Notes: generated by a model not told the origin, from the sequence alone. A stretch of 64,000 bases of DNA from Desulfosudaceae bacterium (GCA_963674745.2 CAXXDV010000003.1:1248001-1312000), one strand, 5' to 3'. Shown: positions 3,141-40,424, numbered from the stretch's first letter. Program-made: numbers and translations.

Positions 3141-3380
3141 CGTACTTTTCTTTGGCGCAAAGAAAAATACCAAAAGAAACATTGCCCGGCAGCTTGGCCT
3201 TCGGCTTCCCTCGCGCAGTCGTTTTTTTCGGCGCGGACAGGAACTCGCGCAGTCTCGGTTGTGTAGGGGCAACCCCCTGTGGTTGCCCATCAGCTGGGCG
3301 GCCACAGGGGGCCGCCCCTACAGCATTTGTCCGCGTCTTCCGAAAAAACCGCCCGCGCTCGGCTGCGCTGCAACGGGCGG
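3141..3380. repeat. Structured intergenic hairpin element with a GTAG-REP doublet at its centre
   Basis: tacttttctttg/caaagaaaa hairpin; arms gtttttttcgg-cgcggaca and tgtccgcg-ccgaaaaaac flank the REP pair. Confidence 0.55.
3262..3322. repeat. Inverted pair of GTAG-type REP palindromes
   Basis: GTAGGGGCAACCCCCTGTGGTTGCCC (3263-3288) and GGGCGGCCACAGGGGGCCGCCCCTAC (3296-3321). Confidence 0.8.
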
Positions 3381-3581
3381 GGCCGTGCGGGAAATGTGAT
3401 GTCAATCTGAATATGTTTATAACCACGCCATTTCAGGGCATGGAAAACTAAAATGTATCCGCGTCCGGCTGTTTTCCCACCAGCGAAAATTCGTCGACTC
3501 TTCCCGAAGAGGTCGAAGCCAGGGTTCGCGCCTGGGTGGATAAAACCTACGGCAGGTGAGAAGGGCGTCATTTCAGGCCGC

Positions 3582-5768
3582 TTAATACAGTGTTTCTACG
3601 CTCCAATAGGTATCGTTTACCGGTGGAAATTTCTTCTTGTACTGAAGTTCCATTCGGACCTGCTTATCAAGACGCTGGGGAATGCCAAACCGGATGATGC
3701 CGTCTTTGGTCTTCCATTCCGTGATGCGGGCGAATTTTCCGGTGTTCAGGTCATTGATAAAGTCAGGAGAAAATTCTCCCTGGTCATAGGTGTCTGTGGG
3801 CGGTCCCAGCCGCTTGAGGATGGCCGCCTGCACGCGCCCGAAGGTCTGCGCCACGGTCTGCTGGTTACCCACGTTATCGAAATCGATCACCAGGACGGTG
3901 CCGTTGACGATGGTTTCATCGGTGAGGAGCCCGAAACGCTGGCGTTCATCTATTTCGTCAAGAATATGCGCTTCATAAACGACAAGCCCCGGCTGCATTA
4001 TTCCGCCGGTCAGCCCCTGTGTATCCAGTTGCCGCATCACAGTGGCAAGATCCTCGCCGATAATTTTGGAGGGCATCAGCGCCGGCTGCTGCGGGGATGC
4101 GGCTTCTTCCTGTCGGGTGAATAAGGGGCGGAAAACGCTGGCGACGGTTTTACCCGCGGGCTTCTCGAAATGGAATGTGTAGAAGGCGCCCACCCGGTAT
4201 GCCTCTGTTGCGTCGGCACTGGTCGGATCCCTGTCGGTATAATCCATTTCCAGCCCAAGTGTGTGAGCGCCGTAGACAAGCCGGTAATTCGCCGACAGGG
4301 TGTTGATAAAATCATCCCGGGTTCCCGCGGCATATGCTTTTTTCAGCAGGAGATTGTAATTAAGCCCGAAATAATGATGCTCACGCGCCAGTTGCAGCCC
4401 CAATGAACCGCCATACACATCGCCATCGGTCTGATTCCCCTGGAGGTGCTGGAAGACGAGCCCCGGCGTGATGCTGCCCTTGAAGGAAGCAAGGGCGATC
4501 GCATGGGCGCCGCTGAGGCTGACCTCGATCGTGTGCTGGGAGCGGCTATTGGCAACGGCATAGTTTTCAAGCCTTCGGCCGATCAGCGCGAGCCGGGTGG
4601 CCCAGGAACGGACGGGCATACCCAGGCTGAGGTTTAAAGACTGGATGTCGGTGTCGATGGTTTTATCATGATCTTCTGTCGTCTGGCAGAAGGCGTCGAA
4701 GTTGGTGGTCAGGGCCGGATGGAAAAAGCCGAGGGGACCGGTAAGCGCCACGCCGGCGACATTTGTTTCCGTTGGATTGCCGGAGCTGACGCCATCGGTG
4801 AAGCGCTGGAGACGTCCCCTGAGGTTAAGCCCCTGGGTAAACCGCCATGCCCCGTGTGCTTCGCAGGCCTCATAATCCTGGTTGACCAGGGCGCCCTTCG
4901 GCTTGTAGTTTTTGCCGTAGTTCTCGTACCGGAGACGGTAGGTGAAGGGTGTCCCGGTCTTTCCCCGGAGCTGCCCGAAATACCCCATGCCCGAAGCATT
5001 TTCTTTTACCGTGTTGTCCATAAAGTCGATGTAATCGCCGGTGAAAAAATTGACTTCCCCCTCAACCGTCATTTCCTGTTTTCCGAGGGCCCATTTTTTT
5101 TCACCGGTTACGCCGGTCGTTATCTGATTGCGCGTAGAATACTCGTTGCTCTCGTCACGGGCACTGTGATTATGAACGATATTGACGGCGTAGTTTCCCC
5201 AGCGGGGGTGTTCCATAAGCCACGAAGCACCGCTGAACAGGTTGTCCCGGGGGGTATAGTCTTTATAATCGTCCGCGCCCGCGCCGGAAAAGAGCAGAAA
5301 AGAGTTTTTTCCGTCCATGGACGCGAAGGTGGGCTGAAATTCAAGCTGGATGCCTTTCAAGGAACGCTGGATGGTTCGGGTGCTTATAAACGAGAAAGTG
5401 TCGCCGAGCTGGTTTCTAAAGGGGACTCCTCTGTCGCCCTTTTCCCAGGTCAGGTTACATCTTTCCAGGACAAAGCCGGTGTAACGGCTGCGGTAGCCGG
5501 AGTCATTATAGAGAAGATCGGCCCGGCCCTGGATAAACTCGTAAGGCGAGTAGCGCCTGGAAAATCCGGTCGCCAGTTCATTATAGAACTGGCCGCCGGT
5601 ATCCTGGTAAGGGCTTCCGGAAGGGTTTCCCCAGTAATCGTAATGTTCATATCTGGCGGTATTGTCAACCGTGATGGACCAGTCCTGGAGCCACTGCGTC
5701 TCCTGCGCGCGGGCATAAGCCGGCAGAAGAACCCCCGCGATAATGATGAGTATGAGGATTCGTTTCAT
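3582..5768 (-). CDS. Hypothetical exported protein; probable outer-membrane beta-barrel with a C-terminal soluble domain
   Basis: 728 aa; signal peptide ending AYARA|QE; alternating aromatic/hydrophobic strands; internal beta-signal-like YRVGAFYTFHF followed by about 190 aa. Confidence 0.65.
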   Translation of the reverse strand: MKRILILIIIAGVLLPAYARAQETQWLQDWSITVDNTARYEHYDYWGNPSGSPYQDTGGQFYNELATGFSRRYSPYEFIQGRADLLYNDSGYRSRYTGFVLERCNLTWEKGDRGVPFRNQLGDTFSFISTRTIQRSLKGIQLEFQPTFASMDGKNSFLLFSGAGADDYKDYTPRDNLFSGASWLMEHPRWGNYAVNIVHNHSARDESNEYSTRNQITTGVTGEKKWALGKQEMTVEGEVNFFTGDYIDFMDNTVKENASGMGYFGQLRGKTGTPFTYRLRYENYGKNYKPKGALVNQDYEACEAHGAWRFTQGLNLRGRLQRFTDGVSSGNPTETNVAGVALTGPLGFFHPALTTNFDAFCQTTEDHDKTIDTDIQSLNLSLGMPVRSWATRLALIGRRLENYAVANSRSQHTIEVSLSGAHAIALASFKGSITPGLVFQHLQGNQTDGDVYGGSLGLQLAREHHYFGLNYNLLLKKAYAAGTRDDFINTLSANYRLVYGAHTLGLEMDYTDRDPTSADATEAYRVGAFYTFHFEKPAGKTVASVFRPLFTRQEEAASPQQPALMPSKIIGEDLATVMRQLDTQGLTGGIMQPGLVVYEAHILDEIDERQRFGLLTDETIVNGTVLVIDFDNVGNQQTVAQTFGRVQAAILKRLGPPTDTYDQGEFSPDFINDLNTGKFARITEWKTKDGIIRFGIPQRLDKQVRMELQYKKKFPPVNDTYWSVETLY

Positions 5769-12181: not shown

Positions 12182-12660
12182 TCAATCAATACTGAGCGTG
12201 TTCGCCGCTACCGGGAAGGAATGCCGGCTGTCGGTGGTCAGCTTGAAGCGCGTGGGCGTTTTTGCCTTCAAACCCATTTGGCGCATTATCCGTCGCACTT
12301 TGTAGCGGCCGATTTGATGCCCTTCATCATTTAGCTGCTTCACCATTCTGCGGAGACCGTAACTGGCCCTGGACATATCAAATATTTCCTTGATTCGGTT
12401 TCTTAATGCGGTTTCTTCAGGCCGATTTCATCGGTACTGTATTGGTCAAGATACTCGTAAAAACCGCTCCGGCTGACCCGCATGACCGCACACAGGACGG
12501 TTACGGGATAGGTCTCCATTTGCTGCCGAATAAAATCAATTCTTACTTTGATTCGTTCGCAAAGAAGGCCGTCGCTTTTTTTAAGATTTCATGCGCCATT
12601 AAAAGGCGTTGGTTTTCTTTTCTCAGTCTTTTATTCTCTGCCTCAAGATCCCGGTCGGTT
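12182..12660 (-). mobile_element. IS3-family transposase remnant (OrfA end and OrfB start; disrupted)
   Basis: Minus strand reads LEAENKRLRKENQRLLMAHEILKKATAFFANESK* with an A7G slippery site (T7 at 12576-12582), then YPVTVLCAVMRVSRSGFY and ASYGLRRM...YKVRRIMRQMGL...TTDSRH; no DDE domain. Confidence 0.85.
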
Positions 12661-12850
12661 CCGGATGGATTTTCATTCGATCCAGGAGATATTGAGCATT
12701 TTAATATAATGGGAAGGAATCCGATCCGGGAGAAACATTTTTATGTAGAGATTTCGAGAAGAACAAATCTCAACCAACCTCAGTCTTAATGCTTTTATAA
12801 TTAATATAATTTTCGGAATTCACTCTATCCCGGAGGGATTAGGTCGTATA

Positions 12851-12871
12851 GCCGGTGGTTTCAACCACCGT
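12851..12871. repeat. Short REP-like palindrome
   Basis: gccggtggtttcaaccaccgt hairpin in intergenic DNA. Confidence 0.45.
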
Positions 12872-13028
12872 TAAGATAAACCCTGCAAAATGAGACCTGA
12901 AGGGGCGGCGTTTACCATGAAAAGCAGGTGTCTACGTTCTTGATAAGAAGCCTGTCTTTATGATAATGTCACAAAACAACTGAAGCAACATCCTCTAATT
13001 TACTTGATTTGCGATAAAAGGAAAAACA

Positions 13029-28641: not shown

Positions 28642-28677
28642 CCCGATGGCTTTAAAGAGGGTTTTTTGGGAAAAAAT

Positions 28678-29955
28678 ATGAGTGATATCGCTTTTGGATT
28701 ATATAATTTTGGCTGGCACCTGGTGCTGCCGATCCTGAAAACCCATCCCCGTCTCAAAGACGGATTTGCGGCACGGATGTTCATTGATCAACCGGCGAAA
28801 CCGGCGGATCTCTGGATACAGGCGGCATCGGCCGGAGAGGCCTACCTGGCAGCCGGCCTGATTAAATCCCTTCCATCGGACCCAAAGGCGCGTATCCTGG
28901 TCACCACCAACACCCGCCAGGGTATGGAAATTCTGCAAAAAGCCGTCACGGATCCGGTTGTTCGATCGTCACACCCGGACATCATGCTGACTTTTTTTCC
29001 GTTTGATCAGCCCAAAATTATGAATGCGGCTGTCCGGCGGATTCAACCGAAAGTGATGGTGCTTCTGGAAAGTGAATTGTGGCCCGGTTTATTGTCCGCC
29101 CTGCGCCGGCACGATTGCCGAATCCTGATCATTAACGGTCGCATGACACCCAAGAGTGTCAAAGGATACCGGCTGCTTTCGGGGCTCTGGAAAAAACTGG
29201 CACCGGATCATGTTCTGGCCATTTCCAGGCAGGATGCCGATCGGTTTGCCGCCGTATTCGGGCAGGACAGGGTAGGGGTCATGCCCAATATCAAATTTGA
29301 TGGTGTCGACACAGGCGATGGCTTTGAAGAAAGTGCCGGCCGGGTTCAATCGCTGGTGCCTGAGAATTCGGATTTTCTGGTTTTCGGCTCCGTCCGGCAG
29401 GAAGAAGAGTCTGATATCCTGAAAATGATCGAGCAGATCCACACCCGCTTTCCGGATCTTGTGATCGGCCTGTTCCCGCGCCATATGCACCGTTTAAAGG
29501 CATGGCAGCAGAACCTGGAAAAACAAGGAAGGAAATGGGCCTTTCGAAGCGCCCTGGTCGATGCCCCGGCCGGTCCCGGGTCGGTTGTGCTATGGGACAC
29601 ATTCGGCGAGCTGAATGCGGCCTATTCTGCCGCCAAAGCCGTGTTTGTCGGCGGCAGCCTGGCGCCCCTGGGCGGGCAGAATTTTCTGGAGCCTTTGATC
29701 AACGGTGTTGTTCCGGTGATCGGACCTTCCTGGGAGAATTTCTTCTGGATCGGTCAGGAGGTGTTTTCGGCCGACCTGGTGCATAAGACCCCGGACTGGC
29801 AGCAGGCCGCTGCGGAACTGATCCGGTTGCTCGAAAATCCTCTACCACGTGATGAAGTTCAGAACAAAGCGGCGGCATATGTCCGCAATCGCCAGGGGGG
29901 AACGAAACAGGCCTGTGAACTGGTTCTTCAGGCCCTTGAGGGGAAGCTTCCATAG
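28678..29955 (+). CDS. waaA: 3-deoxy-D-manno-octulosonic acid (Kdo) transferase
   Basis: WIQAASAGE, FPFD, ESELWP, INGRM, NIKFD, FPRH, DTFGEL, FVGGSL, GGQNFLEP. Confidence 0.92.
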   Translation: MSDIAFGLYNFGWHLVLPILKTHPRLKDGFAARMFIDQPAKPADLWIQAASAGEAYLAAGLIKSLPSDPKARILVTTNTRQGMEILQKAVTDPVVRSSHPDIMLTFFPFDQPKIMNAAVRRIQPKVMVLLESELWPGLLSALRRHDCRILIINGRMTPKSVKGYRLLSGLWKKLAPDHVLAISRQDADRFAAVFGQDRVGVMPNIKFDGVDTGDGFEESAGRVQSLVPENSDFLVFGSVRQEEESDILKMIEQIHTRFPDLVIGLFPRHMHRLKAWQQNLEKQGRKWAFRSALVDAPAGPGSVVLWDTFGELNAAYSAAKAVFVGGSLAPLGGQNFLEPLINGVVPVIGPSWENFFWIGQEVFSADLVHKTPDWQQAAAELIRLLENPLPRDEVQNKAAAYVRNRQGGTKQACELVLQALEGKLP

Positions 29956-29975: not shown

Positions 29976-30008
29976 TAAAAAGGGCTCAGAAAATGCTCTG
30001 AGCCCTTT
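29976..30008. terminator. Bidirectional intrinsic terminator between convergent genes
   Basis: aaagggctcaga-aaatgc-tctgagcccttt perfect stem with A/T tails. Confidence 0.8.
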
Positions 30009-30043: not shown

Positions 30044-30463
30044 TTATTGCTTTCCCGAAAATTTTGTGTCGACGGTTGGCGGCGCACCTGCCGTAACGCC
30101 CTGGAGGCCGACAGAAGATTTTGGATGTGTTTCACAGGAGGTGGGATAATGCCCATAATATTTTGTTGATCGCATCCAGTATTCCCATTTTATCCCGGTT
30201 GCATTCAAAGCGGTTCCGTAGACATCGGCACATTTTTTCCGGGCCTCCCGGTAATACAGCATGCAGTCACCATAGGCGGGATCGTAAGCGGCTTCGATGC
30301 TGATCACTCCGGTTTTCTGGCCGCTGGCGCAGGCGATGCAGGTTACGTCTATCAAGCCCAGGTCCTTACAGCTATCTTCTGAAGGCCCGCCTCCGGCAAA
30401 ACACAGGCCTGACAGGGCAAATACCGATAACAAAACTATGGCGCCAATCAATATTCTTTTCAT
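30044..30463 (-). CDS. Small exported Cys-rich protein with predicted mature N-terminus GGG (candidate glycine-acylated substrate)
   Basis: AGGAG RBS; MKRILIGAIVLLSVFALSGLCFA|GGGPSEDSC...; six Cys in the mature part. Confidence 0.75.
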   Translation of the reverse strand: MKRILIGAIVLLSVFALSGLCFAGGGPSEDSCKDLGLIDVTCIACASGQKTGVISIEAAYDPAYGDCMLYYREARKKCADVYGTALNATGIKWEYWMRSTKYYGHYPTSCETHPKSSVGLQGVTAGAPPTVDTKFSGKQ

Positions 30464-30688
30464 GTTACACTCCTTTCCAGGTTAGATTTGAAGTCATAGG
30501 GGATGACAACCGGGCCGGCCGATTTTTATGTTTACAATTTATAAAGAGTTGTTTTTTCAATTTTTATTAATTAACAAAGACATATCTGTTTGTCAATATT
30601 TTCGGTTTCCCGGTAACGGTTGAAACAGGCATAATACTGATCAAAAAAACCATCATTCACGGAATGTCCTGTAATAACTGAAATAATA

Positions 30689-30717
30689 TTGACGCACAAG
30701 ACCGGGCTTGTTATGAT
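30689..30717 (+). promoter_or_regulatory. Sigma70-type promoter
   Basis: TTGACG-17 bp-TATGAT with an extended -10 TG, 44 bp upstream of ATG 30761. Confidence 0.6.
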
Positions 30718-30760
30718 TACAGCATCAAATGACGATATGTCCTTAAACCGGGAGGGGGCC

Positions 30761-31246
30761 ATGAAAAGCACTTCTTTTAGGCGGGTATTCTTTGCTGTTT
30801 TGCTAACCTTTATTTTTGCCGGCCTGGTGTTAAACCGTGCTGAGGTTCAAGCCGGTGGAGGCGGCACAACGGTGAGGGTTTACATTAAAGTGTCCAGGGA
30901 CTGGCTGAACTACGGGCATATCAAGGTCAAAAAAGTAAAACTGAATTGGCAATCTTCGGGCGGCATGCACAATATATTCACAAGCACCGATGCAAACTTC
31001 AACACAGACGATTTTGAAGCCGGTTTTGTGCGTTATACAGATGTCAGTGCGACATTTTACTCCGGAAGATACAGGGATTTCGGAATTAGCGGCAGTGCCG
31101 AATACCCGTATGAGTGTACGATTGAGTATGATGTCATCACCTATAATGCCGATAAACAGGCGGTGGTTAAAACATGTTGCCTGACCAGGTCTGCCACAAT
31201 AAGCAGTGGAACCGATTTTACCTTCGAATGGCCCAACAAAATGTAA
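30761..31246 (+). CDS. Small exported protein with predicted mature N-terminus GGGG (candidate glycine-acylated substrate)
   Basis: GGAGGGGG RBS; MKSTSFRRVFFAVLLTFIFAGLVLNRAEVQA|GGGGTTVRV...; beta-rich; first gene of the exporter cluster. Confidence 0.75.
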   Translation: MKSTSFRRVFFAVLLTFIFAGLVLNRAEVQAGGGGTTVRVYIKVSRDWLNYGHIKVKKVKLNWQSSGGMHNIFTSTDANFNTDDFEAGFVRYTDVSATFYSGRYRDFGISGSAEYPYECTIEYDVITYNADKQAVVKTCCLTRSATISSGTDFTFEWPNKM

Positions 31247-31279
31247 AGAACATCAGCGGGGTCGGACCACGTCAACCAC

Positions 31280-32968
31280 ATGGTTATCAATAATAATCAT
31301 TCAAGAAAATATTGTTTTTTCTCTTTAGCCTCCCTTGAGGGGATTAAAAAAAATCACTTTTCTTTCCGGTACGCAGCCCTGTTGTTGATTTTTCTCCTGT
31401 TCTTCTGTCTCACCTTTCCCCTTTCCGTATTTTCTGATGAAGTCGAAACTGAACCCCTAGAGAACGTTCTGGAGATGAGCCTGGCCGAAGCCGTTTCACT
31501 GGCACTCAGGTCCAACCGGTCGGTCCAAATGGCTTACCTGGACCGGGTTGTTCAAAAGTTTGCGCTTAAGGTCGCCGAAGACAAGTTCCGGCCGGACGTG
31601 GATGTCGCCGCCGGCATCAGTCGAACCGACACATCCGATGAAACCTCACAATCCCTGGAACGGACTGAAACAGACAGTCTAAGCGATCAGTTTTCCGGGT
31701 CTGTAAGCGTTTCAGAAACGATCCCCACCGGCGGCATGTTCGCGTTTGTCTGGACACCCACAAAAAGCGATTACGAGACGGATGATTTTCAGACCGGTTT
31801 CGGCTCAACCCGGCGGGCGTCCGACGATTACACTTCATCATGGCGTATCAGTTTCACCCAACCGCTCCTTAAAGGCGGGGGGATTGACGTCAACACCGCC
31901 TCGGTGTCGCAGGCCCGGTTGATGGAGAAAAGCAATATCCTTTCCCTCAAGGCCACGCTTATCAGCACGGTAACTTCGGTGATCACCGCCTACCGCGCTT
32001 TTCAACTGTCCCGGGATCAGGTCGAGATAAGTAAGGCTTCCCTGGAAAGAGCCAGGAAGCTGGTGGAAATCAACAAGCTCCTGATCGATTCCGGCCGGAT
32101 GCCGTCGGTGGAGCTGGTGCAGAGTGAGGCCGAGGTCGCCAGCAGAGAGTTCGCTTATGAGGGGGCCTTGAACAATTTTGACAGGGCCAGGCTGGCACTT
32201 GTAAAAGTACTGGATATCCCCAAACATACCCGATTTGTCCTGGCCGGTGAAGGCGACCTTCGACGTATTGTGCCTGATCTTGATACCTGTGCCGGCACTG
32301 CTTTTGAAAACAGGCCGGATTATCTTCAGGCCCTTTTAAACCTGGAAAGCACGAAGATTAATGTGAACCTGGCAGAAAACAACCGGCTCTGGGATTTAAG
32401 CTTTAATGCCGCCTACGGTGAATCCGACAGCCGAACCGATCACCATACTGACGCTCTGTCCAGCCCGCGGTTGAAGGGTGTGGGCCAGGAGTGGAACGCC
32501 GGATTGAACCTCAGCGTTCCTGTGTGGGGTGATCTTTCCCGAAAACAGGCCGTACTCAGTGCCGAAACGAGCCTGAAAAAGACCCGTATCAGTCTGAAGG
32601 AGCTGAAGGATAACGTCGAAACAGAAGTCCTGGATGCGATCAGAGACGTTAAAACCAAGCTGAAACAGGTTGACCTGGCCAGGCTCAGCAGGGATTTGAC
32701 GGAACAAAAGCTCGTGATAGAGGACGCCAAGCTCAAAGCCGGACGCTCTACCAACTTTCAGCTGGTCAGCTTTCAGAACGATCTGGTCAATGCCCAGAAC
32801 GCGGAATTGAGCGCCATTACTGACTATAGAAACGCGCTGACGTCTCTGGATCAGGTTTTGGGCACAACCCTTGACACGTGGAGGATATACTACAAGGATG
32901 ATAACGGGAACGTGTTTTCAGGACCAGAACACTCGGAAAATGTCATGAAGATTTCAGACGGGCGATGA
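31280..32968 (+). CDS. TolC-family outer-membrane channel (AatA-like)
   Basis: MSLAEAVSLALRSN, SFTQPLLKG, AFENRPDY, LNLSVPVWG, KLKAGRSTNFQLVSFQNDL; start codon uncertain. Confidence 0.88.
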   Translation: MVINNNHSRKYCFFSLASLEGIKKNHFSFRYAALLLIFLLFFCLTFPLSVFSDEVETEPLENVLEMSLAEAVSLALRSNRSVQMAYLDRVVQKFALKVAEDKFRPDVDVAAGISRTDTSDETSQSLERTETDSLSDQFSGSVSVSETIPTGGMFAFVWTPTKSDYETDDFQTGFGSTRRASDDYTSSWRISFTQPLLKGGGIDVNTASVSQARLMEKSNILSLKATLISTVTSVITAYRAFQLSRDQVEISKASLERARKLVEINKLLIDSGRMPSVELVQSEAEVASREFAYEGALNNFDRARLALVKVLDIPKHTRFVLAGEGDLRRIVPDLDTCAGTAFENRPDYLQALLNLESTKINVNLAENNRLWDLSFNAAYGESDSRTDHHTDALSSPRLKGVGQEWNAGLNLSVPVWGDLSRKQAVLSAETSLKKTRISLKELKDNVETEVLDAIRDVKTKLKQVDLARLSRDLTEQKLVIEDAKLKAGRSTNFQLVSFQNDLVNAQNAELSAITDYRNALTSLDQVLGTTLDTWRIYYKDDNGNVFSGPEHSENVMKISDGR

Positions 32969-35046
32969 TGATGAACACGAAAAACAAGTCAAACGGTAAC
33001 GACAGGATCATCGAGTCATATGAACGGCTTATTCATATAGCCCTGTCCCTCTCCAGGGAGAAGGACGCCGATCATTTGTTGGAGATGATTCTGGATGAGG
33101 CCCGGGCGATTTGCCGGGCGGATGCCGGTACGATTTATACCCTTGATGCAGATGAACGTTGTCTGTGGTTCGCTTTTATGCAGAATGATAAATTGAACAT
33201 CAGGACCCGCGGGGAGGACGCGGCCGACGAATACCCCCGGATTCCGCTTTACTCCGGCAGTAAGCCCAACCATGTCAATGTATCGTCCTATGTCGCCCTG
33301 ACCGGCGAAACAGTCAATATCCAGGATGTTTATAAAGATAAAAGTTTCGACTTTGAAGGGCCCAAGACATTTGACAAGCAGACCGGTTACCGGACCAGCG
33401 CCATGCTGGTCATTCCCATGAAGAATCATCTGGATGAGACGGTCGGTGTGCTTCAGCTTATCAATGCCAATGACGAACACAGCGGTACGTTCACCGCTTT
33501 TTCCGAACACGATGCGAAAATTGTTTCCGCTCTGGCCTCCCTTGCCGCCGTAGCGCTCACCAAAACCCGGCTAATCGATCAGCTGTACCGGGAATTGGAT
33601 AAAACGAGAAAACTTAAAGAGAATGTGGATGACCTCAACCGTCAGATTAAGTCGGCCTTTCTGGATGTGGAAGAATCCAACAAGGAAATGGCCGCTGCCC
33701 TGAAAAAGGTCAAGGTGACCCGGATCGTAAGTGTGGCGGTCATTATTTTTTTCCTCCTGGCCGGAGGCGGTTTTTACGTTTATCAGAAAACGGCCCTTAA
33801 GCGGAAGATGCCTTCCCGCTCAGCCGCTGCCGGTATTGCTGGCAGAGACGCCACCAGTGCCTATATCGTCACGCCGCAACCGATTTCCTCCAGTGTTTCG
33901 CTTGTGGGTAAGTTGGAACCCTTAAAGCAGATCAGCATTGTCAGTCCTTTTACCGGAAAAGTCGCGGAGAAATTTTTTGAGTATGGTCAGAACGTGGACA
34001 AGGGGCAACTGCTTGTGAAAATGGATACCGAAGAACTTAACGCCCGGATCCGGGAGGCAACGGCCAAGCACATCAAGACCAGCCAGCAGCTTCAGAATAT
34101 CCGAAACTGGAATCAAAGCACCGATGTCACCCAGGCCAAACGTTCTCTTTCCAGGTCAAAACACGCCAGGGACACCGCCGCCAGAAAGCTTGATGAAGCG
34201 AAAGTCCTTTTTGACAAAGGCATCATATCCCGTGCCGAATACGAGTCCGCTGACGAATCCTTGCGGAACGCCTTTCTGGAGTTGGCTTCCGCTGAGGATA
34301 ACCTGGCAGCGGTTCTGGAAAAGGGAAGTGCCGATAATGTCCGGGTGGCCGAGTTCGAGTTTGAAAACGCCAGTGTCGAGTTGAACAAGCTCCAGGAGCA
34401 ACTGGATATGGCTGAGGTGCGGTCGCCGGTAACAGGGATTATTCTGTTGCCAAGGGCGCTCGGCACAGAAATAAAGAGAGTTGCCAGGGGCGTTTCCGTA
34501 AACCAGGGCGAACTGCTGGTATCGGTCGGTGATCTGGAGGGCTATTCGGTAAAATGTCAGGTGGACGAAGTAGACATCGGCAAGATAAAGATCGGCCAAT
34601 CGGTGACGGTCAGTGGTGATGCCTTTCCTGACCTTTTCCTGGCAGGAAAGATCAGTCACGTCTCGTCCCAGGCGGGTTCTTCAGATGGGTTTTCTTCCAT
34701 ACCCATGTTCGATGTCATCGTGACGATCGATTCGTTGTGCCCGGAGGAGGCTGAACGACTTCGGCTGGGCATGAGCTGCAATCTTCAGGTGCAGGTTTAT
34801 AAAAACCCCCGGGCCTTGATGGTGCCGATCCATATGGTGCGTACGGATGGCGCCGAACCCCGGGTCTATGTCCGGATAAAAAAGACCGGTGAAATTAAAA
34901 TGGTTCCGGTCAAGGTCGGTATTACCACCATGGATTCGGTGGAAGTCAAGAGTGGTTTAAAGGCGGGTGATACGGTGGTAATATCCGCTGATACGGCCGG
35001 TAAAACGGGTCGCGATCAATACAACGTTGATTACCTGGGGTGGTGA
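32965..35046 (+). CDS. MacA/HlyD-type periplasmic adaptor fused to an N-terminal GAF domain
   Basis: GAF (ADAGTIY, VALTGETVNIQDVY, FDKQTGYRT, VGVLQLINA), coiled coil, one TM, then SPFTGKV..GQNVDKGQLL, VRSPVTG, VDEVDIGKIKIGQ, VEVKSGLKAGD. Confidence 0.88.
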   Translation: MMMNTKNKSNGNDRIIESYERLIHIALSLSREKDADHLLEMILDEARAICRADAGTIYTLDADERCLWFAFMQNDKLNIRTRGEDAADEYPRIPLYSGSKPNHVNVSSYVALTGETVNIQDVYKDKSFDFEGPKTFDKQTGYRTSAMLVIPMKNHLDETVGVLQLINANDEHSGTFTAFSEHDAKIVSALASLAAVALTKTRLIDQLYRELDKTRKLKENVDDLNRQIKSAFLDVEESNKEMAAALKKVKVTRIVSVAVIIFFLLAGGGFYVYQKTALKRKMPSRSAAAGIAGRDATSAYIVTPQPISSSVSLVGKLEPLKQISIVSPFTGKVAEKFFEYGQNVDKGQLLVKMDTEELNARIREATAKHIKTSQQLQNIRNWNQSTDVTQAKRSLSRSKHARDTAARKLDEAKVLFDKGIISRAEYESADESLRNAFLELASAEDNLAAVLEKGSADNVRVAEFEFENASVELNKLQEQLDMAEVRSPVTGIILLPRALGTEIKRVARGVSVNQGELLVSVGDLEGYSVKCQVDEVDIGKIKIGQSVTVSGDAFPDLFLAGKISHVSSQAGSSDGFSSIPMFDVIVTIDSLCPEEAERLRLGMSCNLQVQVYKNPRALMVPIHMVRTDGAEPRVYVRIKKTGEIKMVPVKVGITTMDSVEVKSGLKAGDTVVISADTAGKTGRDQYNVDYLGW

Positions 35047-35051
35047 GAAAA

Positions 35052-35744
35052 ATGGCCGCAAAGCTTCTCAAGCTTAATCAGATCCGTAAGTCCTACCGGC
35101 TGGGCCCGGTAGAGATGGAAATCCTCAAAGGAGTGGACCTGGATGTGGCGACGGGCGCGCTTCTTTCTATAATGGGTTCTTCCGGGAGCGGCAAATCGAC
35201 CCTGATGAACATTATGGGTTTTCTGGATACACCGGACAGCGGGTCCTACTTTCTGGAAGAAAGAGATGTCTCAGACCTTGATGACGAAGCGCTTTCTGAT
35301 ATCAGAAACGAGCGAATCGGTTTTGTGTTTCAGCAGTTCAACCTCCTCCATCGGCTTTCCGCCGTGGACAATGTGTCTTTGCCCCTGGTGTACCGGGGGG
35401 TAACGGAAAAGGAGCGCCGACATCGATCTCTGGAAATTCTGGAAAAGGTGGGCGTGTCCGACAGGGCGCATCACCGTCCCGGTGAACTTTCCGGCGGCCA
35501 GCAGCAACGGGTCGCCATTGCCAGGGCCATTGTGGGCAAGCCCTCCATTATTCTGGCCGACGAGCCCACAGGTGCTCTGGATACCAGGGTGGGCCAGGAG
35601 ATAATGGACCTTTTTATCAGGCTTAACCGGGAAGAGGGCATTACCATCGTGATTATTACCCATGACCCGAAAGTGGCCGCCCAGTGCGATATGATGGTTC
35701 GCATGGATGACGGTATAATCCATCCGCTGACGGAGGCCGTATGA
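35052..35744 (+). CDS. ABC transporter ATP-binding protein (MacB/LolD type)
   Basis: GSSGSGKST, IGFVFQQFNLL, LSGGQQQRVAIARA, ILADEPTGALD, ITHD. Confidence 0.95.
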   Translation: MAAKLLKLNQIRKSYRLGPVEMEILKGVDLDVATGALLSIMGSSGSGKSTLMNIMGFLDTPDSGSYFLEERDVSDLDDEALSDIRNERIGFVFQQFNLLHRLSAVDNVSLPLVYRGVTEKERRHRSLEILEKVGVSDRAHHRPGELSGGQQQRVAIARAIVGKPSIILADEPTGALDTRVGQEIMDLFIRLNREEGITIVIITHDPKVAAQCDMMVRMDDGIIHPLTEAV

Positions 35745-36931
35745 TCCTGAGCACCAATGTCAAAGAGGCTGTTCAGAGCCTATGGAGCGCCAAGCAGCGC
35801 AGTCTTCTGGCCCTGATCGGTATTCTGGTCGGTATCGGCTCGGTTATTGCCATGGTTTCGGTGGGCACCATCGTTCAGCGGGAGGCTTTGAGGCAGTTCA
35901 AGGAGATGGGCACCGATATCCTGTCTATAACCAAAGCGTCCGGGAAAGAGGGGGCGAGGGGGCGAGACAGCGGGATAAGTCTCGATATTGCACTGGGAAT
36001 TCCGGAATACTGTTCACAGATCGAAATGGTGGCGCCTTATGCCTCTGTCTTCGGCACGTTAAAGTACCGGGGGCAGAAAATCGACACCCCGGCGCTGGGC
36101 GTGACCAGTTCTTTTTTGGATATCAACAAGCTGAAGCTGTTACAGGGGAGGTTTGTTTCCGACCTGGATCATTTCATGTATTTCTGCGTGGCCGGTGCCG
36201 GTGTTCAGCAGAAGCTGGCGGAGCTGGGTGTGGGGGAGATTGTCGGAACCAGCATCATATATATGGAAAAACAGTTTACCATTATGGGCACCATCGCCTA
36301 TGCACCGCCCACCAATATGCGACCTTATGAAGTGAGCGCGGGTATCATGATTCCCCTGTCCACTTCGCGCCGTCTGGGGCAGAATGAGGGCATCCGTTCA
36401 ATTCTGGCCCGGATGGTGCCCGATGGGGATCACCTTGTGGCAACTGATGAAATTCGCAGGTATTTTGAGACACAGGCCGAAGGCATGAGCGTGCGTGTTC
36501 AGAGCGCCGAAGAACTTATAGCGCAGATGCAGAAGCAGATGCAGATGTTTACCCTGCTTCTGGGGGTCATCGGCTCCATTTCTTTGATTGTGGGCGGCGT
36601 CGGGGTTATGAACGTCATGCTCGTTTCCGTCACCGAGCGCAGAAAGGAAATCGGTATTCGCAGGGCCCTGGGCGCGAGGCGAAAGGACATCCAGGGCCAG
36701 TTTTTGGTGGAGTCAATTTTTTTATGCCTGACCGGAGGCGTCCTGGGCGTTGCCCTGGGGTTAGCCGTGTCGTTCGCCATTGCCCGCTTTTCCAACTGGC
36801 AGTTTTTTATTTCCCACATGGCGGTAGTCCTGGGTGTGTTGGTGTCAGCGGCGGTCGGCCTCTTTTTCGGTTATTATCCGGCCCGGCAAGCTGCCAGAAT
36901 GAACCCCATTGATGCGCTCAGGACGGAATAA
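35741..36931 (+). CDS. ABC transporter permease (MacB/FtsX type)
   Basis: RSLLALIGILVGIGSVIAM, ISLIVGGVGVMNVMLVSVTERRKEIGIRRALGA, PARQAARMNPIDALR. Confidence 0.95.
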   Translation: MILSTNVKEAVQSLWSAKQRSLLALIGILVGIGSVIAMVSVGTIVQREALRQFKEMGTDILSITKASGKEGARGRDSGISLDIALGIPEYCSQIEMVAPYASVFGTLKYRGQKIDTPALGVTSSFLDINKLKLLQGRFVSDLDHFMYFCVAGAGVQQKLAELGVGEIVGTSIIYMEKQFTIMGTIAYAPPTNMRPYEVSAGIMIPLSTSRRLGQNEGIRSILARMVPDGDHLVATDEIRRYFETQAEGMSVRVQSAEELIAQMQKQMQMFTLLLGVIGSISLIVGGVGVMNVMLVSVTERRKEIGIRRALGARRKDIQGQFLVESIFLCLTGGVLGVALGLAVSFAIARFSNWQFFISHMAVVLGVLVSAAVGLFFGYYPARQAARMNPIDALRTE

Positions 36932-36942
36932 AACAACCTGCC

Positions 36943-38487
36943 ATGATTATCCGATTTCTGTTCATTCTTGTTTCGGCCGGTCTTTTCGCCCTGTGTTTTC
37001 CTGATGGTCCGCTGCCCCTGGCCGCTTTTGTCTGCCTGGTGCCCTTCGCCCTCTCCCTTGAAGGTGCCACCGCAAAATCCGGTTTGATAATGGGGTTATT
37101 GTACGGGTTTTGTATCTGGATGATCGCGGCCTGGTGGATGGCCAATGGCTTTTATTATTATGTCAGACTTCCCTGGGGTGCGGCCTGGTTCTGGACAGCA
37201 TTAATCTGCCTGATTTCGTCTCTGCCCTACATGATTTTCGGCCTGTTAAGCGGTCTGTGCGGGTGGATGAAGACCCCTTACGGCCGTTTTAAAGCGGCTG
37301 TGGCGTTGACGGTTCTTCTTTCCTGGTACCCGATCGCTTTTCCGGGAAATTACGCCCATTCGCTCTATGCCCATCCCCTGCTCATCCAGTTGGTCGATCT
37401 GGGCGGCATACCGCTTTTGTTGCTGGCCATGAATCTGATTAATTTTTTTATCGCCGGCACTCTTTTAGACCGGGCCACCCCGCGCGGTCCTGTCAAAAAC
37501 ATTCTGATGGCGATGATTACGCTGGCACTGGTGATTATCTACGGAAATTCGCGGTTGAGCCGGTTTCATGCAGACATGGCTGACGCCGACGGGGACCGGC
37601 GGGTGAAGATCGTTTCCGTTCAACCCAACCTTTCGCTCAAGCGGGCAGGGGTGCCTCAGGTCTTCGGTAACGCTGAAAAAGCAAAAGACACGGCGTCTGT
37701 TTTGACGCTATCGGAAGAAGCGATAACCCTTTTCCCGGACGCACAGGCTGTCGTGTGGCCTGAGCTGCCGGACGGCATTTCCTGTAATCCTGATAATGGA
37801 ATCTGGCGAAAGGTTCGTGATCTGGCCTCAAAATCAGGCATCCCGTTTATCGTTAATTGCTATGAATATAACCCGGCTGTTCGAGGTGATTACAATATTG
37901 CCCGGTTAATATCCGGGGCCGGAGAAACAGGCCCCGGATACCGGAAGCGGATTCTTCTGCCTTTTGGCGAGTATCTGCCCGGAGAACGGCATCTGCCCTG
38001 GCTGCGACGGCTTTTCCCACGGTCTCTTTACTATATCCCGGGTGATGATGGCGTTACCCTCCTGCCCCTTGGCGGAAAGCATCAGGCAATTCCCACCCTG
38101 TGCTATGAAGTGCTGTTCCCCGGCCTGGTGCGGGATTTTGTTCTTCAAGGCGGCGATGTGATCATCAACCTGGTCGATGATGTCTGGTTTGGGGAGAGCG
38201 ACGCATCGGCCATCCACATGGCCCTGGCCGTATTTCGGGCGGCGGAATACCGGTTACCGCTGGTCAGGGTGACCAATTCAGGAAATGGCGTGTTTGTCCA
38301 GCCTACAGGAGAAATCGTCGATGGATCGAGAACACCGGTGTTCCAGCCCCGGCTGACCGCTTTTCCTTTGTTCGTGCCCCCGGATCGATCCCTTTACGCG
38401 GCCTGCGGGAATACTTTTCTGATATTTCTAACGGTGTTGTTGGGGGTAGAAGTGGTTTGTTATCGGATCATTTCTTGTCCTTTTTAA
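36943..38487 (+). CDS. Apolipoprotein N-acyltransferase homolog (Lnt/AatD-like)
   Basis: N-terminal TMs; VQPN; nitrilase triad VVWPE, YRKRILLPFGEY, LCYE; DDVWFG; RAAEYRLPLVRVTNSG. Confidence 0.88.
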   Translation: MIIRFLFILVSAGLFALCFPDGPLPLAAFVCLVPFALSLEGATAKSGLIMGLLYGFCIWMIAAWWMANGFYYYVRLPWGAAWFWTALICLISSLPYMIFGLLSGLCGWMKTPYGRFKAAVALTVLLSWYPIAFPGNYAHSLYAHPLLIQLVDLGGIPLLLLAMNLINFFIAGTLLDRATPRGPVKNILMAMITLALVIIYGNSRLSRFHADMADADGDRRVKIVSVQPNLSLKRAGVPQVFGNAEKAKDTASVLTLSEEAITLFPDAQAVVWPELPDGISCNPDNGIWRKVRDLASKSGIPFIVNCYEYNPAVRGDYNIARLISGAGETGPGYRKRILLPFGEYLPGERHLPWLRRLFPRSLYYIPGDDGVTLLPLGGKHQAIPTLCYEVLFPGLVRDFVLQGGDVIINLVDDVWFGESDASAIHMALAVFRAAEYRLPLVRVTNSGNGVFVQPTGEIVDGSRTPVFQPRLTAFPLFVPPDRSLYAACGNTFLIFLTVLLGVEVVCYRIISCPF

Positions 38488-38593: not shown

Positions 38594-40201
38594 ATGCTTA
38601 TCTTTTCATCAAGATTCAATAGCTTCTTTTTTTTTATTCTATTATTTATTGCAGTAAGAACTGCGTTCGCTTCACAGCAAATTCAAATCGTTCCTGATTC
38701 TGCTTCGAATAAGATAGAAAACAAGGCAACATTTGAACGCACAGCCCTCAAAACAGAAAAAGGGCTGCTGATGTGGGATTATGAAAAGATTCCCGTTCCT
38801 GACAATAAAGCTATTGATTTGCTGGGCTTTCATTATCTTCACCAGGTGAACAGGTGGCTTTTTCTGGGTTTTGGCGCCCATGCCCCCCTGGTCGATGGAG
38901 ATTATGGCGGCTTTATGGCAGCAGATGCCACAATACATGCGCAACGAAAAATATTCGGGAATTCATTTGTCGATGCCGGCGTCTCCATGGGCGGGGGCGG
39001 CGGTGGCTCCAGTATAAACCAGAGCAGAGAATTATCCGGAAAGGGCGGTTATATAAAAAGTTACGCAGGGTTGGGGTACGATTTTCGCCTTTTCTCATTA
39101 GGCGTAAACTATGCGCACTTTAAATTCATGAATTCCTCTATCAAGCACTCACAATTCAATTTTTTTATCCAAAAACCAATTTCATTTTCGATCAGTCCAT
39201 ATGCGAATTCAGGAAAACAGAACGCATTTGATGTTAGCCTTTCAGGATCCAAAGAAACGATACTGACACTTGAATTTAATAATATATTTCAAATTAAACC
39301 GGAAGGCTCGAATACCAGAACGATTAATACGTTTTCCCTGCAATTTTCACGGTTCCTGAATAACAATCATTATTTTTTTCTTGGAGCGGATGTCGGCTAT
39401 AACGGCCTTCCACTGTATAATCAATTATTCGGTGGTATCGGGTATAAGCATACAATCTCTTCCCGCGTTAATCTACATGGCCAGATCGGTGTCGGCTCCG
39501 GCGGGTATTCGCCGGATATAATCGATACCGGCCCCGGACTGCTTGTTTATCCAAAATGTTCGGTTGAATACTTATTGAATAATCATATTGGATTATCTTT
39601 GTCGGGTGGCTATTTGTTAGCGCCGGAAGGTTCCTCTAGAAATTTTACCCTGGGCGCTGCCATGAATTACCACCTTTCGACAACAGATCGTATCCCTGAT
39701 AAATCCAGCCCAGAGAAGCGTCTGGTATTTCGGGGATTTCGTTTCAATGTGTTCCATCAAACTGAGTTTAATGTCAAATTAGGAGATATGGATCACGACA
39801 ACATCAATTTTTTATCATTTCAACTTGATAATCTTGTGCATGATAACTGGTATATACCCGTTCAGGTCAGTGTCGCGTATAATGATTTTTTCGGGTATCC
39901 CGGGTATGGCGAAATGTTAACCGGATTCGGTTTGCAGAATAAATACGCATCAACAAATCGTTTCCAGTACTTTTGCCAGGTTTTGATTGGCGTTAATGTC
40001 CATAGTGTATTGTTAAAACCTTCGATGGGGATAAATTACAGCTTGAGTGATCATTTTGCGCTCTATGCCCAGGTCGGAAAGACCATATCACTTTATAAAT
40101 TAGACCTGTACAATAATTTTGACCAGTATAACGAACGATTGAATACCAGCTTTATCGGAATCGGGTTGACCTATCGTTTTTCGGTACTGGACATCCTGTA
40201 A
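38594..40201 (+). CDS. Hypothetical exported, probable outer-membrane beta-barrel protein
   Basis: Signal ending TAFA|SQ; Gly/aromatic-rich strands, repeated YGGF/YPGY and GGGGG/GSGG loops, near-terminal LTYRF; AT-rich DNA. Confidence 0.65.
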   Translation: MLIFSSRFNSFFFFILLFIAVRTAFASQQIQIVPDSASNKIENKATFERTALKTEKGLLMWDYEKIPVPDNKAIDLLGFHYLHQVNRWLFLGFGAHAPLVDGDYGGFMAADATIHAQRKIFGNSFVDAGVSMGGGGGGSSINQSRELSGKGGYIKSYAGLGYDFRLFSLGVNYAHFKFMNSSIKHSQFNFFIQKPISFSISPYANSGKQNAFDVSLSGSKETILTLEFNNIFQIKPEGSNTRTINTFSLQFSRFLNNNHYFFLGADVGYNGLPLYNQLFGGIGYKHTISSRVNLHGQIGVGSGGYSPDIIDTGPGLLVYPKCSVEYLLNNHIGLSLSGGYLLAPEGSSRNFTLGAAMNYHLSTTDRIPDKSSPEKRLVFRGFRFNVFHQTEFNVKLGDMDHDNINFLSFQLDNLVHDNWYIPVQVSVAYNDFFGYPGYGEMLTGFGLQNKYASTNRFQYFCQVLIGVNVHSVLLKPSMGINYSLSDHFALYAQVGKTISLYKLDLYNNFDQYNERLNTSFIGIGLTYRFSVLDIL

Positions 40202-40248: not shown

Positions 40249-40326
<78 letters not shown>

Positions 40327-40348
40327 GAATTGAAACAGGGTCTTTCTA

Positions 40349-40424
40349 TGGTGGGCGGAACAGGGCTTGAACCTGTGACCCTCGGCTTGTAAGGCCGATG
40401 CTCTCCCAACTGAGCTACCCGCCC
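40349..40424 (-). tRNA. tRNA-Val(TAC)
   Basis: GGGCGGGTAGCTCAGTTGGGAGAGCATCGGCCT-TAC-AAGCCGAGGGTCACAGGTTCAAGCCCTGTTCCGCCCACCA. Confidence 0.97.

Follow-up and report, generated by a model that had tools for sequence, protein, structure and literature searches.

The window analysed here is a 64,000-nucleotide stretch of the genome of a Desulfosudaceae bacterium (GCA_963674745.2 CAXXDV010000003.1:1248001-1312000). At 30044-38487 it holds a gene cluster that couples a MacB/TolC-type export pump to a divergent homolog of apolipoprotein N-acyltransferase (Lnt), which we call LntW, and to two small genes, cargo1 and cargo2, whose products are predicted to begin with Gly-Gly-Gly once their signal peptides are removed. 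We propose that this cluster may encode a pathway for glycine lipidation and export analogous to the Aat/Cex system of enteric bacteria. Eight genes lie between a Kdo-transferase gene (28666-29955) on one side and a porin-like gene, two tRNAs and lon on the other. Cargo1 (30044-30463, minus strand; 139 aa), a Sec-signal protein, is followed directly after its stop codon by an intrinsic-terminator-like hairpin with a 13-bp stem and a T run (29979-30008, minus strand). A divergent intergenic region of 297 bp (30464-30760) separates it from cargo2 (30761-31246, plus strand; 161 aa), also a Sec-signal protein and the first gene of the operon. Within it, TTGACG-17-TATGAT at 30689-30717 (+) resembles a TG-extended sigma-70 site, and a ribosome-binding site, GGAGGG, stands ahead of ATG 30761, the likely start within the cargo2 open reading frame (30689-31246, +); the promoter-like and ribosome-binding sites are consensus matches only. 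On the same strand follow the genes for a TolC-family outer-membrane channel with OEP domains (31280-32968; PF02321, 1.9e-47), a GAF-fused periplasmic adaptor of the HlyD/RND_mfp type (32965-35046; 693 aa; GAF 4.4e-13, HlyD_3 1.9e-11), a MacB/LolD-type ABC ATPase (35040-35744; ABC_tran 6.7e-32), a MacB-type permease (35741-36931; MacB_PCD 5.7e-25, FtsX 3.5e-22) and LntW (36943-38487; 514 aa; LNT_N and CN_hydrolase). From tolC to the permease gene, stop and start codons overlap by 4, 7 and 4 nt, and lnt follows after an 11-nt spacer; the gap from cargo2 to tolC is 33 nt, and no terminator-like site was found in it. All five genes of the tightly coupled order TolC-adaptor-MacB ATPase-MacB permease-Lnt are thus present as the initial annotation had described them, as are the two divergent small genes that it had placed upstream, with signal peptides ending in Ala followed by GGG (...CFA↓GGGPSE and ...VQA↓GGGGT; the arrow marks the predicted cleavage site).

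Both cargo proteins have a basic N-terminus, a hydrophobic core and small residues at -3 and -1, as signal peptidase I requires. With cleavage sites placed according to the -3/-1 rule and sequence conservation rather than a trained predictor such as SignalP, cargo1 would be cut after MKRILIGAIVLLSVFALSGLCFA to leave GGGPSEDS, and cargo2 within ...NRAEVQA↓GGGGTTVRV. Neither protein matches Pfam or NCBIfam. Mature cargo1 would have about 116 residues, with six conserved Cys. Its relatives make up seven clusters in a collection of 5.8 billion proteins, to which we add an ortholog from the second genome described below; across these eight homologs A↓GGGP is invariant (8/8) and the signal peptides vary. 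A competing cut by signal peptidase II at the Cys of LSGLC, which had been raised as the event that would deprive cargo1 of its N-terminal glycine, is ruled out: the Cys is preceded by Leu or Arg, is absent from three of the eight homologs and is no lipobox Cys. Cargo2 has ten related clusters in the same collection, nine of them full-length, and Gly stands at +1 (as GGG or GGS) in seven of these nine. The mature part of cargo2 is predicted to be a beta-sandwich (AF2 pLDDT 73.6) for which Foldseek found no match in the PDB at E<=1e-3; the best VIA-align hit, a fimbrial protein, has a Z of 6.9, within the range common for unrelated folds, so that no structural neighbour is convincing and the fold is best called a generic beta-sandwich. 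Dispersin is absent from these structure matches, which shows nothing. The cargo1 model (AF2 pLDDT 62.7) is too weak for a structure search, and a complex prediction of LntW with mature cargo2, for which controls were not run, scored 0.00 against a mark of 0.32 and gives no answer.

Across the genome, GGG is the commonest tripeptide after signal-peptide-like sites, at 28 of 5847 against about 5.5 expected from the Gly frequency at +1. This exceeds chance, in a scan that is crude and over-calling and in which poly-Gly runs contribute many of the 28 as overlapping sites. Six large exported proteins (G000 C1:1056744(-), C1:1913964(+), C3:1546837(+), C3:1643671(+), C3:2138096(+) and C3:2651278(-)) share the N-terminus ...LRY..LLA.V.LGL.SII(G/A)(T/S)GGGG..., with up to seven Gly in the run and no Cys lipobox. 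Four of the six were scanned against Pfam: three have MopE-type metal-binding repeats, one of these with Lcl_C and one with an FGE-sulfatase domain, and the fourth is unmatched. Their poly-Gly N-terminus may be another oligo-Gly sorting signal. For two other GGG-starting proteins (L063 and L077) no homologs were found in four related genomes, which is uninformative.

LntW scores 181.6 bits with the curated lnt model TIGR00546, above its cut-off of 132.9, and matches the solved Lnt chains 5n6m, 5n6h and 5xhq at E 3e-15. It is one of four lnt genes above the cut-off in this genome, at 351.6, 310.1, 271.7 and 182.1 bits, the window copy being the lowest. The highest-scoring copy lies directly upstream of prfB (TIGR00020, 483.6 bits), an adjacency that recurs elsewhere in the order. 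A maximum-likelihood tree of 24 Lnt sequences unites LntW and its ortholog from the second genome with 100/100 support; this pair has a long stem, lies apart from the housekeeping group and has as its sister a paralog found in a different family of the order. The prfB-linked copy clusters with lnt of same-genus and same-family genomes. The concern that the window gene might be the sole canonical copy is thereby removed, and a housekeeping role for it is ruled out by the four-copy count, the prfB-linked best copy and the tree position. The two further paralogs, at C1:528913-530523(-) (310 bits) and C3:2389196-2390713(-) (271 bits), both keep W237 and W148; two genes away from the latter is an alpha/beta-hydrolase with a signal peptide that terminates in ...SMA↓GGSNPD.

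Like housekeeping Lnt, LntW has the LNT_N and CN_hydrolase domains in that order and the whole catalytic apparatus. The E-K-C triad, which the initial annotation had called intact, is so in an alignment to P. aeruginosa Lnt 5n6m, as WPE (E274), YRK (K335) and LCYE (C387), together with E343 in PFGEY and W415; these correspond to E. coli E267, K335, C387, E343 and W415. What sets it apart is the loss of two tryptophans. Trp237, in the K236-W237 motif, is found in 19 of the 24 aligned Lnt-family sequences, and Trp148, in the G-F-P-W148 motif, in 20 of 24. LntW lacks both and has a five-residue insertion in the Trp237 loop; the argument rests on the alignment of an indel-bearing loop, in which HMMER and MAFFT both leave LntW without a Trp. 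The only sequences without either residue are LntW, its ortholog, the sister paralog and AatD. More broadly, 137 columns are conserved in at least 13 of 15 housekeeping sequences, and LntW deviates at many of them, including K236, W237, G145, F146 and W148. In E. coli Lnt, W237 is reported to be essential only when, in the second step, the acyl group passes from Cys387 to the apolipoprotein (bioRxiv 10.1101/497412), and residues L143-W148 line the substrate cavity (PMC5500890). We infer that LntW has retained the acyl-enzyme chemistry and that its acceptor side has been altered along the same lines as that of AatD.

The pump itself is assembled from usual kinds of parts. The channel scores 102.8 bits with TIGR01844, below the cut-off. 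The adaptor passes TIGR01730 (1e-36; 126.6 bits against 94.9) and consists of an N-terminal, cytoplasmic GAF domain (PF01590, 4.4e-13), one membrane span and an HlyD-type periplasmic part (HlyD_3/HlyD_D23). The ATPase and the permease each resemble one half of MacB most closely: for the ATPase, the best NCBIfam match is the N-terminal half (255 bits), followed by LolD (233 bits), and the permease, with its periplasmic core domain and FtsX four-helix module, scores 194.8 bits with the C-terminal half against 37.6 bits for lolCE. Since all equivalog scores fall below the MacA and MacB cut-offs, the pump is a relative of MacAB, not MacAB itself. It also differs from MacAB-TolC exporters in having ATPase and permease in separate genes, a GAF sensor on the adaptor and a coupled Lnt paralog. 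Homologous adaptor-ATPase-permease(-TolC) operons occur in the phylum, with permeases 51-54% identical to that of the window, and the window genome holds a second pump copy at C3:2095527-2099340. The adaptor of this paralogous pump (C3:2095527-2097446) has about 200 N-terminal residues unlike the GAF part of the window adaptor (32965-33600); a sensor-type domain at the N-terminus, on the cytoplasmic side, is a feature of the periplasmic adaptors in this pump family.

When 185,579 species, each represented by a single genome, were scanned for the operon pattern, one relative came up, in an uncultured Desulfobacteraceae metagenome-assembled genome (MAG; locus L009), whose LntW ortholog is 65% identical. 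The MAG operon consists of the same TolC, GAF-adaptor, ATPase, permease and Lnt at 65-78% identity, and its cargo genes lie downstream on the opposite strand, where those of the window lie upstream. Both keep their glycines (LSFA↓GGGRP in the cargo1 ortholog and DIQA↓GGGKK in the cargo2 ortholog), and a frameshifted gene of the third family described below stands among them (...SMA↓GGG...NWKVNVKNDTNYKC). The expectation that a homologous cluster would keep Gly-starting neighbours is thus borne out in this single independent cluster, which holds both cargo genes: the pump, LntW and the cargo genes have been inherited together. A metagenome scan added one 3-kb contig (L041) with the L009 arrangement, near-identical and not independent. 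Around the MAG operon, a 55-residue fragment resembling the LntW C-terminus (L009 12856-13014, +) and broken copies of the third family on either side (L009 about 12445-12900, -, and G201:C78:13921-14193) could be traces of duplication and decay or errors of MAG assembly.

Elsewhere the operon was not found. A same-genus genome that is 99% complete (G129) is syntenic for the upstream neighbours and lacks the operon, and no LntW ortholog was found in it. Because this synteny reaches only as far as the Kdo-transferase gene, the cluster occupies a variable spot. Among 201 genomes of the order, only matches of about 30% identity were found, most of them beside prfB or without a pump. A tblastn search of 72,556 plasmids gave Lnt-like matches in 302 records, of which none could be recognised as resembling AatD or the window operon; Lnt-like genes do occur on many Rhodobacteraceae plasmids (Pseudosulfitobacter 63 records, Phaeobacter 22, Sulfitobacter 14), and in NZ_CP010791.1 (66135-66926) the match falls under a gene annotated as an ABC transporter transmembrane-domain protein. 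Beyond LntW in the window, 107 nt after lnt, lies a gene (38594-40201, +) for a 535-aa signal-peptide protein, rich in Gly, Ser, Asn and aromatic residues and without a Pfam match. The 2-kb bin with this gene has a lower GC content (0.446), and its nearest ESM Atlas clusters are named porin-family, a lead only. The orthologous locus L009 has no such protein, so that it probably does not belong to the system. The tRNA-Asp(GTC) and tRNA-Val(TAC) genes (40249-40424, -) stand between the cluster and lon-clpX-clpP-tig.

A third family of GGG-starting proteins, GGGIN, is encoded away from the window. Its members have about 150 residues, begin with A↓GGGIN(Y/W/H)KV (KVTV in the copies of the window genome) and have no Pfam match. 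The window genome has four intact copies, 35-47% identical to each other, at C3:633495-633947(+), C3:1541041-1541493(+), C3:1578039-1578491(-) and C3:1599781-1600230(+), and the MAG has two intact copies besides the two broken ones that flank its operon. In the protein collection the family forms 32 clusters, and GGG stands at the predicted N-terminus in 31 of them; in an alignment of 15 sequences with a mean identity of 35%, Gly +2 and Gly +3 are among only seven invariant columns. ESM Atlas, queried with one GGGIN protein, gave leads only. Outside the two genomes that carry the operon, the family gave a single hit, a spurious one (4.8e-4), among 200 further genomes of the order, was not found in 400 genomes of the phylum and is absent from the same-genus genome. 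The pump with LntW, cargo1, cargo2 and GGGIN therefore have a common narrow distribution, in two species-level genomes. This fits a functional unit, and the GGGIN paralogs are candidate cargo of the window system encoded in trans. Because just two species-level genomes carry the set, shared lineage-specific ancestry could also explain the co-distribution. The C-termini of cargo1, cargo2, GGGIN and the Aat substrate Aap resemble one another (...KFSGKQ, ...EWPNKM, ...GFRKN, ...SWCKN; Aap ...EWVK), with an aromatic residue and, two to four residues on, a Lys that stands one or two residues from the end; this may be chance.

Aat/Cex is the system with which the cluster is best compared. In both, the same five protein families are found in one operon; the Aat proteins match FtsX and MacB_PCD, OEP, HlyD, ABC_tran and CN_hydrolase, mostly below threshold (AatA against the OEP family PF02321, 1.6e-6), where the window proteins match strongly. 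Substrate-like genes are adjacent to or divergent from aat in 18.4% and 4.8% of loci (PMC7943197). The cargo of both systems is small, carries a Sec signal and no lipobox, and has a Gly/Ser-rich N-terminus starting with Gly, here by predicted cleavage. Aap reads ...NAFA↓GGSGW, and CexE has been N-terminally sequenced as GGGNS, its invariant Gly1 being required for acylation (PMC7943197). AatD needs the E, the K, the E343 equivalent and the C (PMC7943197), and all four are present in LntW, which like AatD lacks W237 and W148. The window ATPase is 35% identical to AatC (E 3e-34). Since the Aat proteins fall in the same five Pfam families and their substrates begin with GGSGW or GGGNS, the window system would be the same kind of machine. 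Each component of Aat has its counterpart: a TolC-like channel, an adaptor, an ATPase with a permease, and a dedicated Lnt with E, K, C and E343 that is additional to the housekeeping Lnt.

The differences are as marked. In single pairwise comparisons, AatP matches the window permease at only E 4e-4 over 138 residues, and AatD falls on a branch of length 10 in the Lnt tree, where no placement is possible. AatD has 404 residues, matches CN_hydrolase only below threshold and is reported to have six membrane spans (PMC13622617); LntW has 514, with LNT_N, and passes the lnt cut-off. AatB is a 273-aa protein with no GAF, against the 693-aa window adaptor with its cytoplasmic GAF domain. The window system would have at least three cargo families, unrelated to CexE/Aap (they lack Pfam and NCBIfam matches, and similarity to Aap was sought only in the N-terminal motif), no AraC/XylS regulator is adjacent to the window operon, and its host is an environmental bacterium of Desulfobacteraceae type, where Aat belongs to enteric pathogens. 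The initial annotation had spoken of a complete Aat-type system. Of this the architecture stands, with its five families and GGG cargo, and descent does not: common ancestry with AatD/AatP and with CexE/Aap is not recovered at the level of sequence. As far as sequence can tell, the window system is an analogue of Aat and not a member of the Aat family by descent.

Based on these comparisons, we hypothesize a two-step, Aat-like pathway of lipidation and export, assembled independently from ordinary parts, to which we give a probability of roughly 0.6. Cargo1, cargo2 and probably the unlinked GGGIN proteins would cross the inner membrane by Sec, and a cut by signal peptidase I after Ala would expose the N-terminal Gly-Gly-Gly. 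LntW would then N-acylate Gly1 through a thioester on Cys387. In the second step, the MacB-type ATPase and permease would pull the acylated cargo from the outer leaflet of the inner membrane and, acting jointly with the GAF-fused adaptor and the TolC-like channel, bring it to the cell surface or release it into the medium; the cytoplasmic GAF domain may gate the pump.

Several observations weigh against this proposal. AatD and LntW match only around the Cys region (E 8e-4 over 101 residues in a single pairwise comparison), and the sister paralog (L046-L048, about 30% identity), which shares the loss of both tryptophans, has small signal-peptide neighbours (L047 10840-11738, -, and L046 7399-7998, +) none of which starts with Gly. 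The N-terminal glycine is not absolute either: two of the nine full-length cargo2 homologs read QA↓SGG and one of the 32 GGGIN clusters reads A↓AGG. The four GGGIN genes of the window genome are scattered in unrelated contexts, unlinked to the operon. Nor is an Lnt a general requirement of the pump: across 401 genomes of the phylum, the 29 best permease-match loci listed from other genomes all lack an Lnt within 1.5 kb, as does the second pump copy of the window genome. One Lnt-less operon of ATPase, permease and TolC (L086, G273:C34; permease 52% identical to that of the window) is directly preceded by two genes for signal-peptide proteins of about 117 residues (3367-4108, -) that begin ...HA↓FCVYN...; these hint that the pump family exports small periplasmic proteins in general, possibly unacylated.

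Like E. coli MacAB-TolC, which exports the enterotoxin STII, the window pump could be a MacAB-TolC-type machine for small proteins or peptides that carry no acyl group, in which case GGG would be a flexible linker and the Lnt paralog would acylate, for example, a subset of Cys-lipoproteins or a lipid. The L086 operon, with its two small secreted proteins without Gly N-termini, speaks for this, as do the six Lnt-less pumps among the 29 with 51-54% permease identity and the fact that LntW still clears the curated lnt cut-off. We nevertheless consider it unlikely. It would leave unexplained that lnt lies only 11 nt from the permease gene and that LntW, the pump and both cargo genes stay together in a second genome despite rearrangement; a linker would usually vary in length, where GGG stands at the exact predicted N-terminus in three unrelated families; and LntW lacks the W237 needed for canonical apolipoprotein acylation, in a genome where three other lnt copies with W237 are available for ordinary lipoproteins. 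The remodelled acceptor portal of LntW would also suit an enzyme whose product is a lipid or lipopeptide, such as a modified phospholipid or a small molecule with an N-acyl group, for the pump to expel, the small proteins being unrelated neighbours. MacB/DevCA-type pumps export lipids and siderophores in other bacteria, and the NCBIfam DevA, DevB and DevC models do match here, weakly. Such a product is improbable when cargo2 opens the operon and nothing resembling a terminator was found between it and tolC, when the cargo genes stay beside the operon in L009 and L041 and broken GGGIN copies flank it in the MAG, and when the cluster is without biosynthetic genes for a small-molecule acceptor. 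Finally, exported proteins that start with GGG are far more numerous in the genome than the window pair, and the oligoglycine could be a handle for another enzyme, for instance a transpeptidase, since sortases use Gly(n) as a nucleophile; the adjacency to Lnt would then be incidental. With no sortase-like gene in or beside either cluster, and with linkage to LntW and the pump conserved, we regard this as very improbable.

A bolder reading we advance only tentatively and at somewhat less than even odds: in this lineage an oligoglycine exposed by signal peptidase I would be a general, Cys-independent lipobox, such that LntW, having lost Trp237 and Trp148 as AatD did, would acylate Gly1 of cargo1, cargo2 and GGGIN (at least three unrelated families and about seven proteins in this genome) and a recruited MacAB-TolC pump would bring them to the surface. 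On this view there would have been two or more origins of glycine lipoproteins and of their export, or else the fast-evolving Aat system of enteric pathogens would descend from an environmental MacB-Lnt operon of this kind.

Glycine-acylated lipoproteins and their export are known from one system, Aat/Cex, which the literature covered here describes as confined to Enterobacterales and tied to virulence (PMC7478709, PMC7943197, PMC13622617). AatD is described as restricted to that order (PMC7478709), aat hosts among 826 accessions are enteric only (PMC7943197), and the system is still tied to enteric pathogens in 2026 (PMC13622617); a 2025 paper mentions Aat only as a system of Pseudomonadota (PMC12578637). 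A full-text literature search on glycine acylation, Lnt and Aat brought up no report beyond these papers. Automated annotation would label the genes of the window as apolipoprotein N-acyltransferase and ABC transporter, and would miss the system. If our interpretation is true, similar systems could be sought by a simple signature, an lnt paralog without W237 and W148, a coupled MacB pump and proteins with a signal peptide ending in Ala↓GGG, and LntW would offer a less diverged enzyme than AatD in which to study how the Lnt acceptor switched from diacylglyceryl-Cys to Gly. A second system of this kind, in a free-living anaerobe and built from ordinary MacB, TolC and Lnt parts, would mean that Cys-independent lipidation is more general in bacteria.

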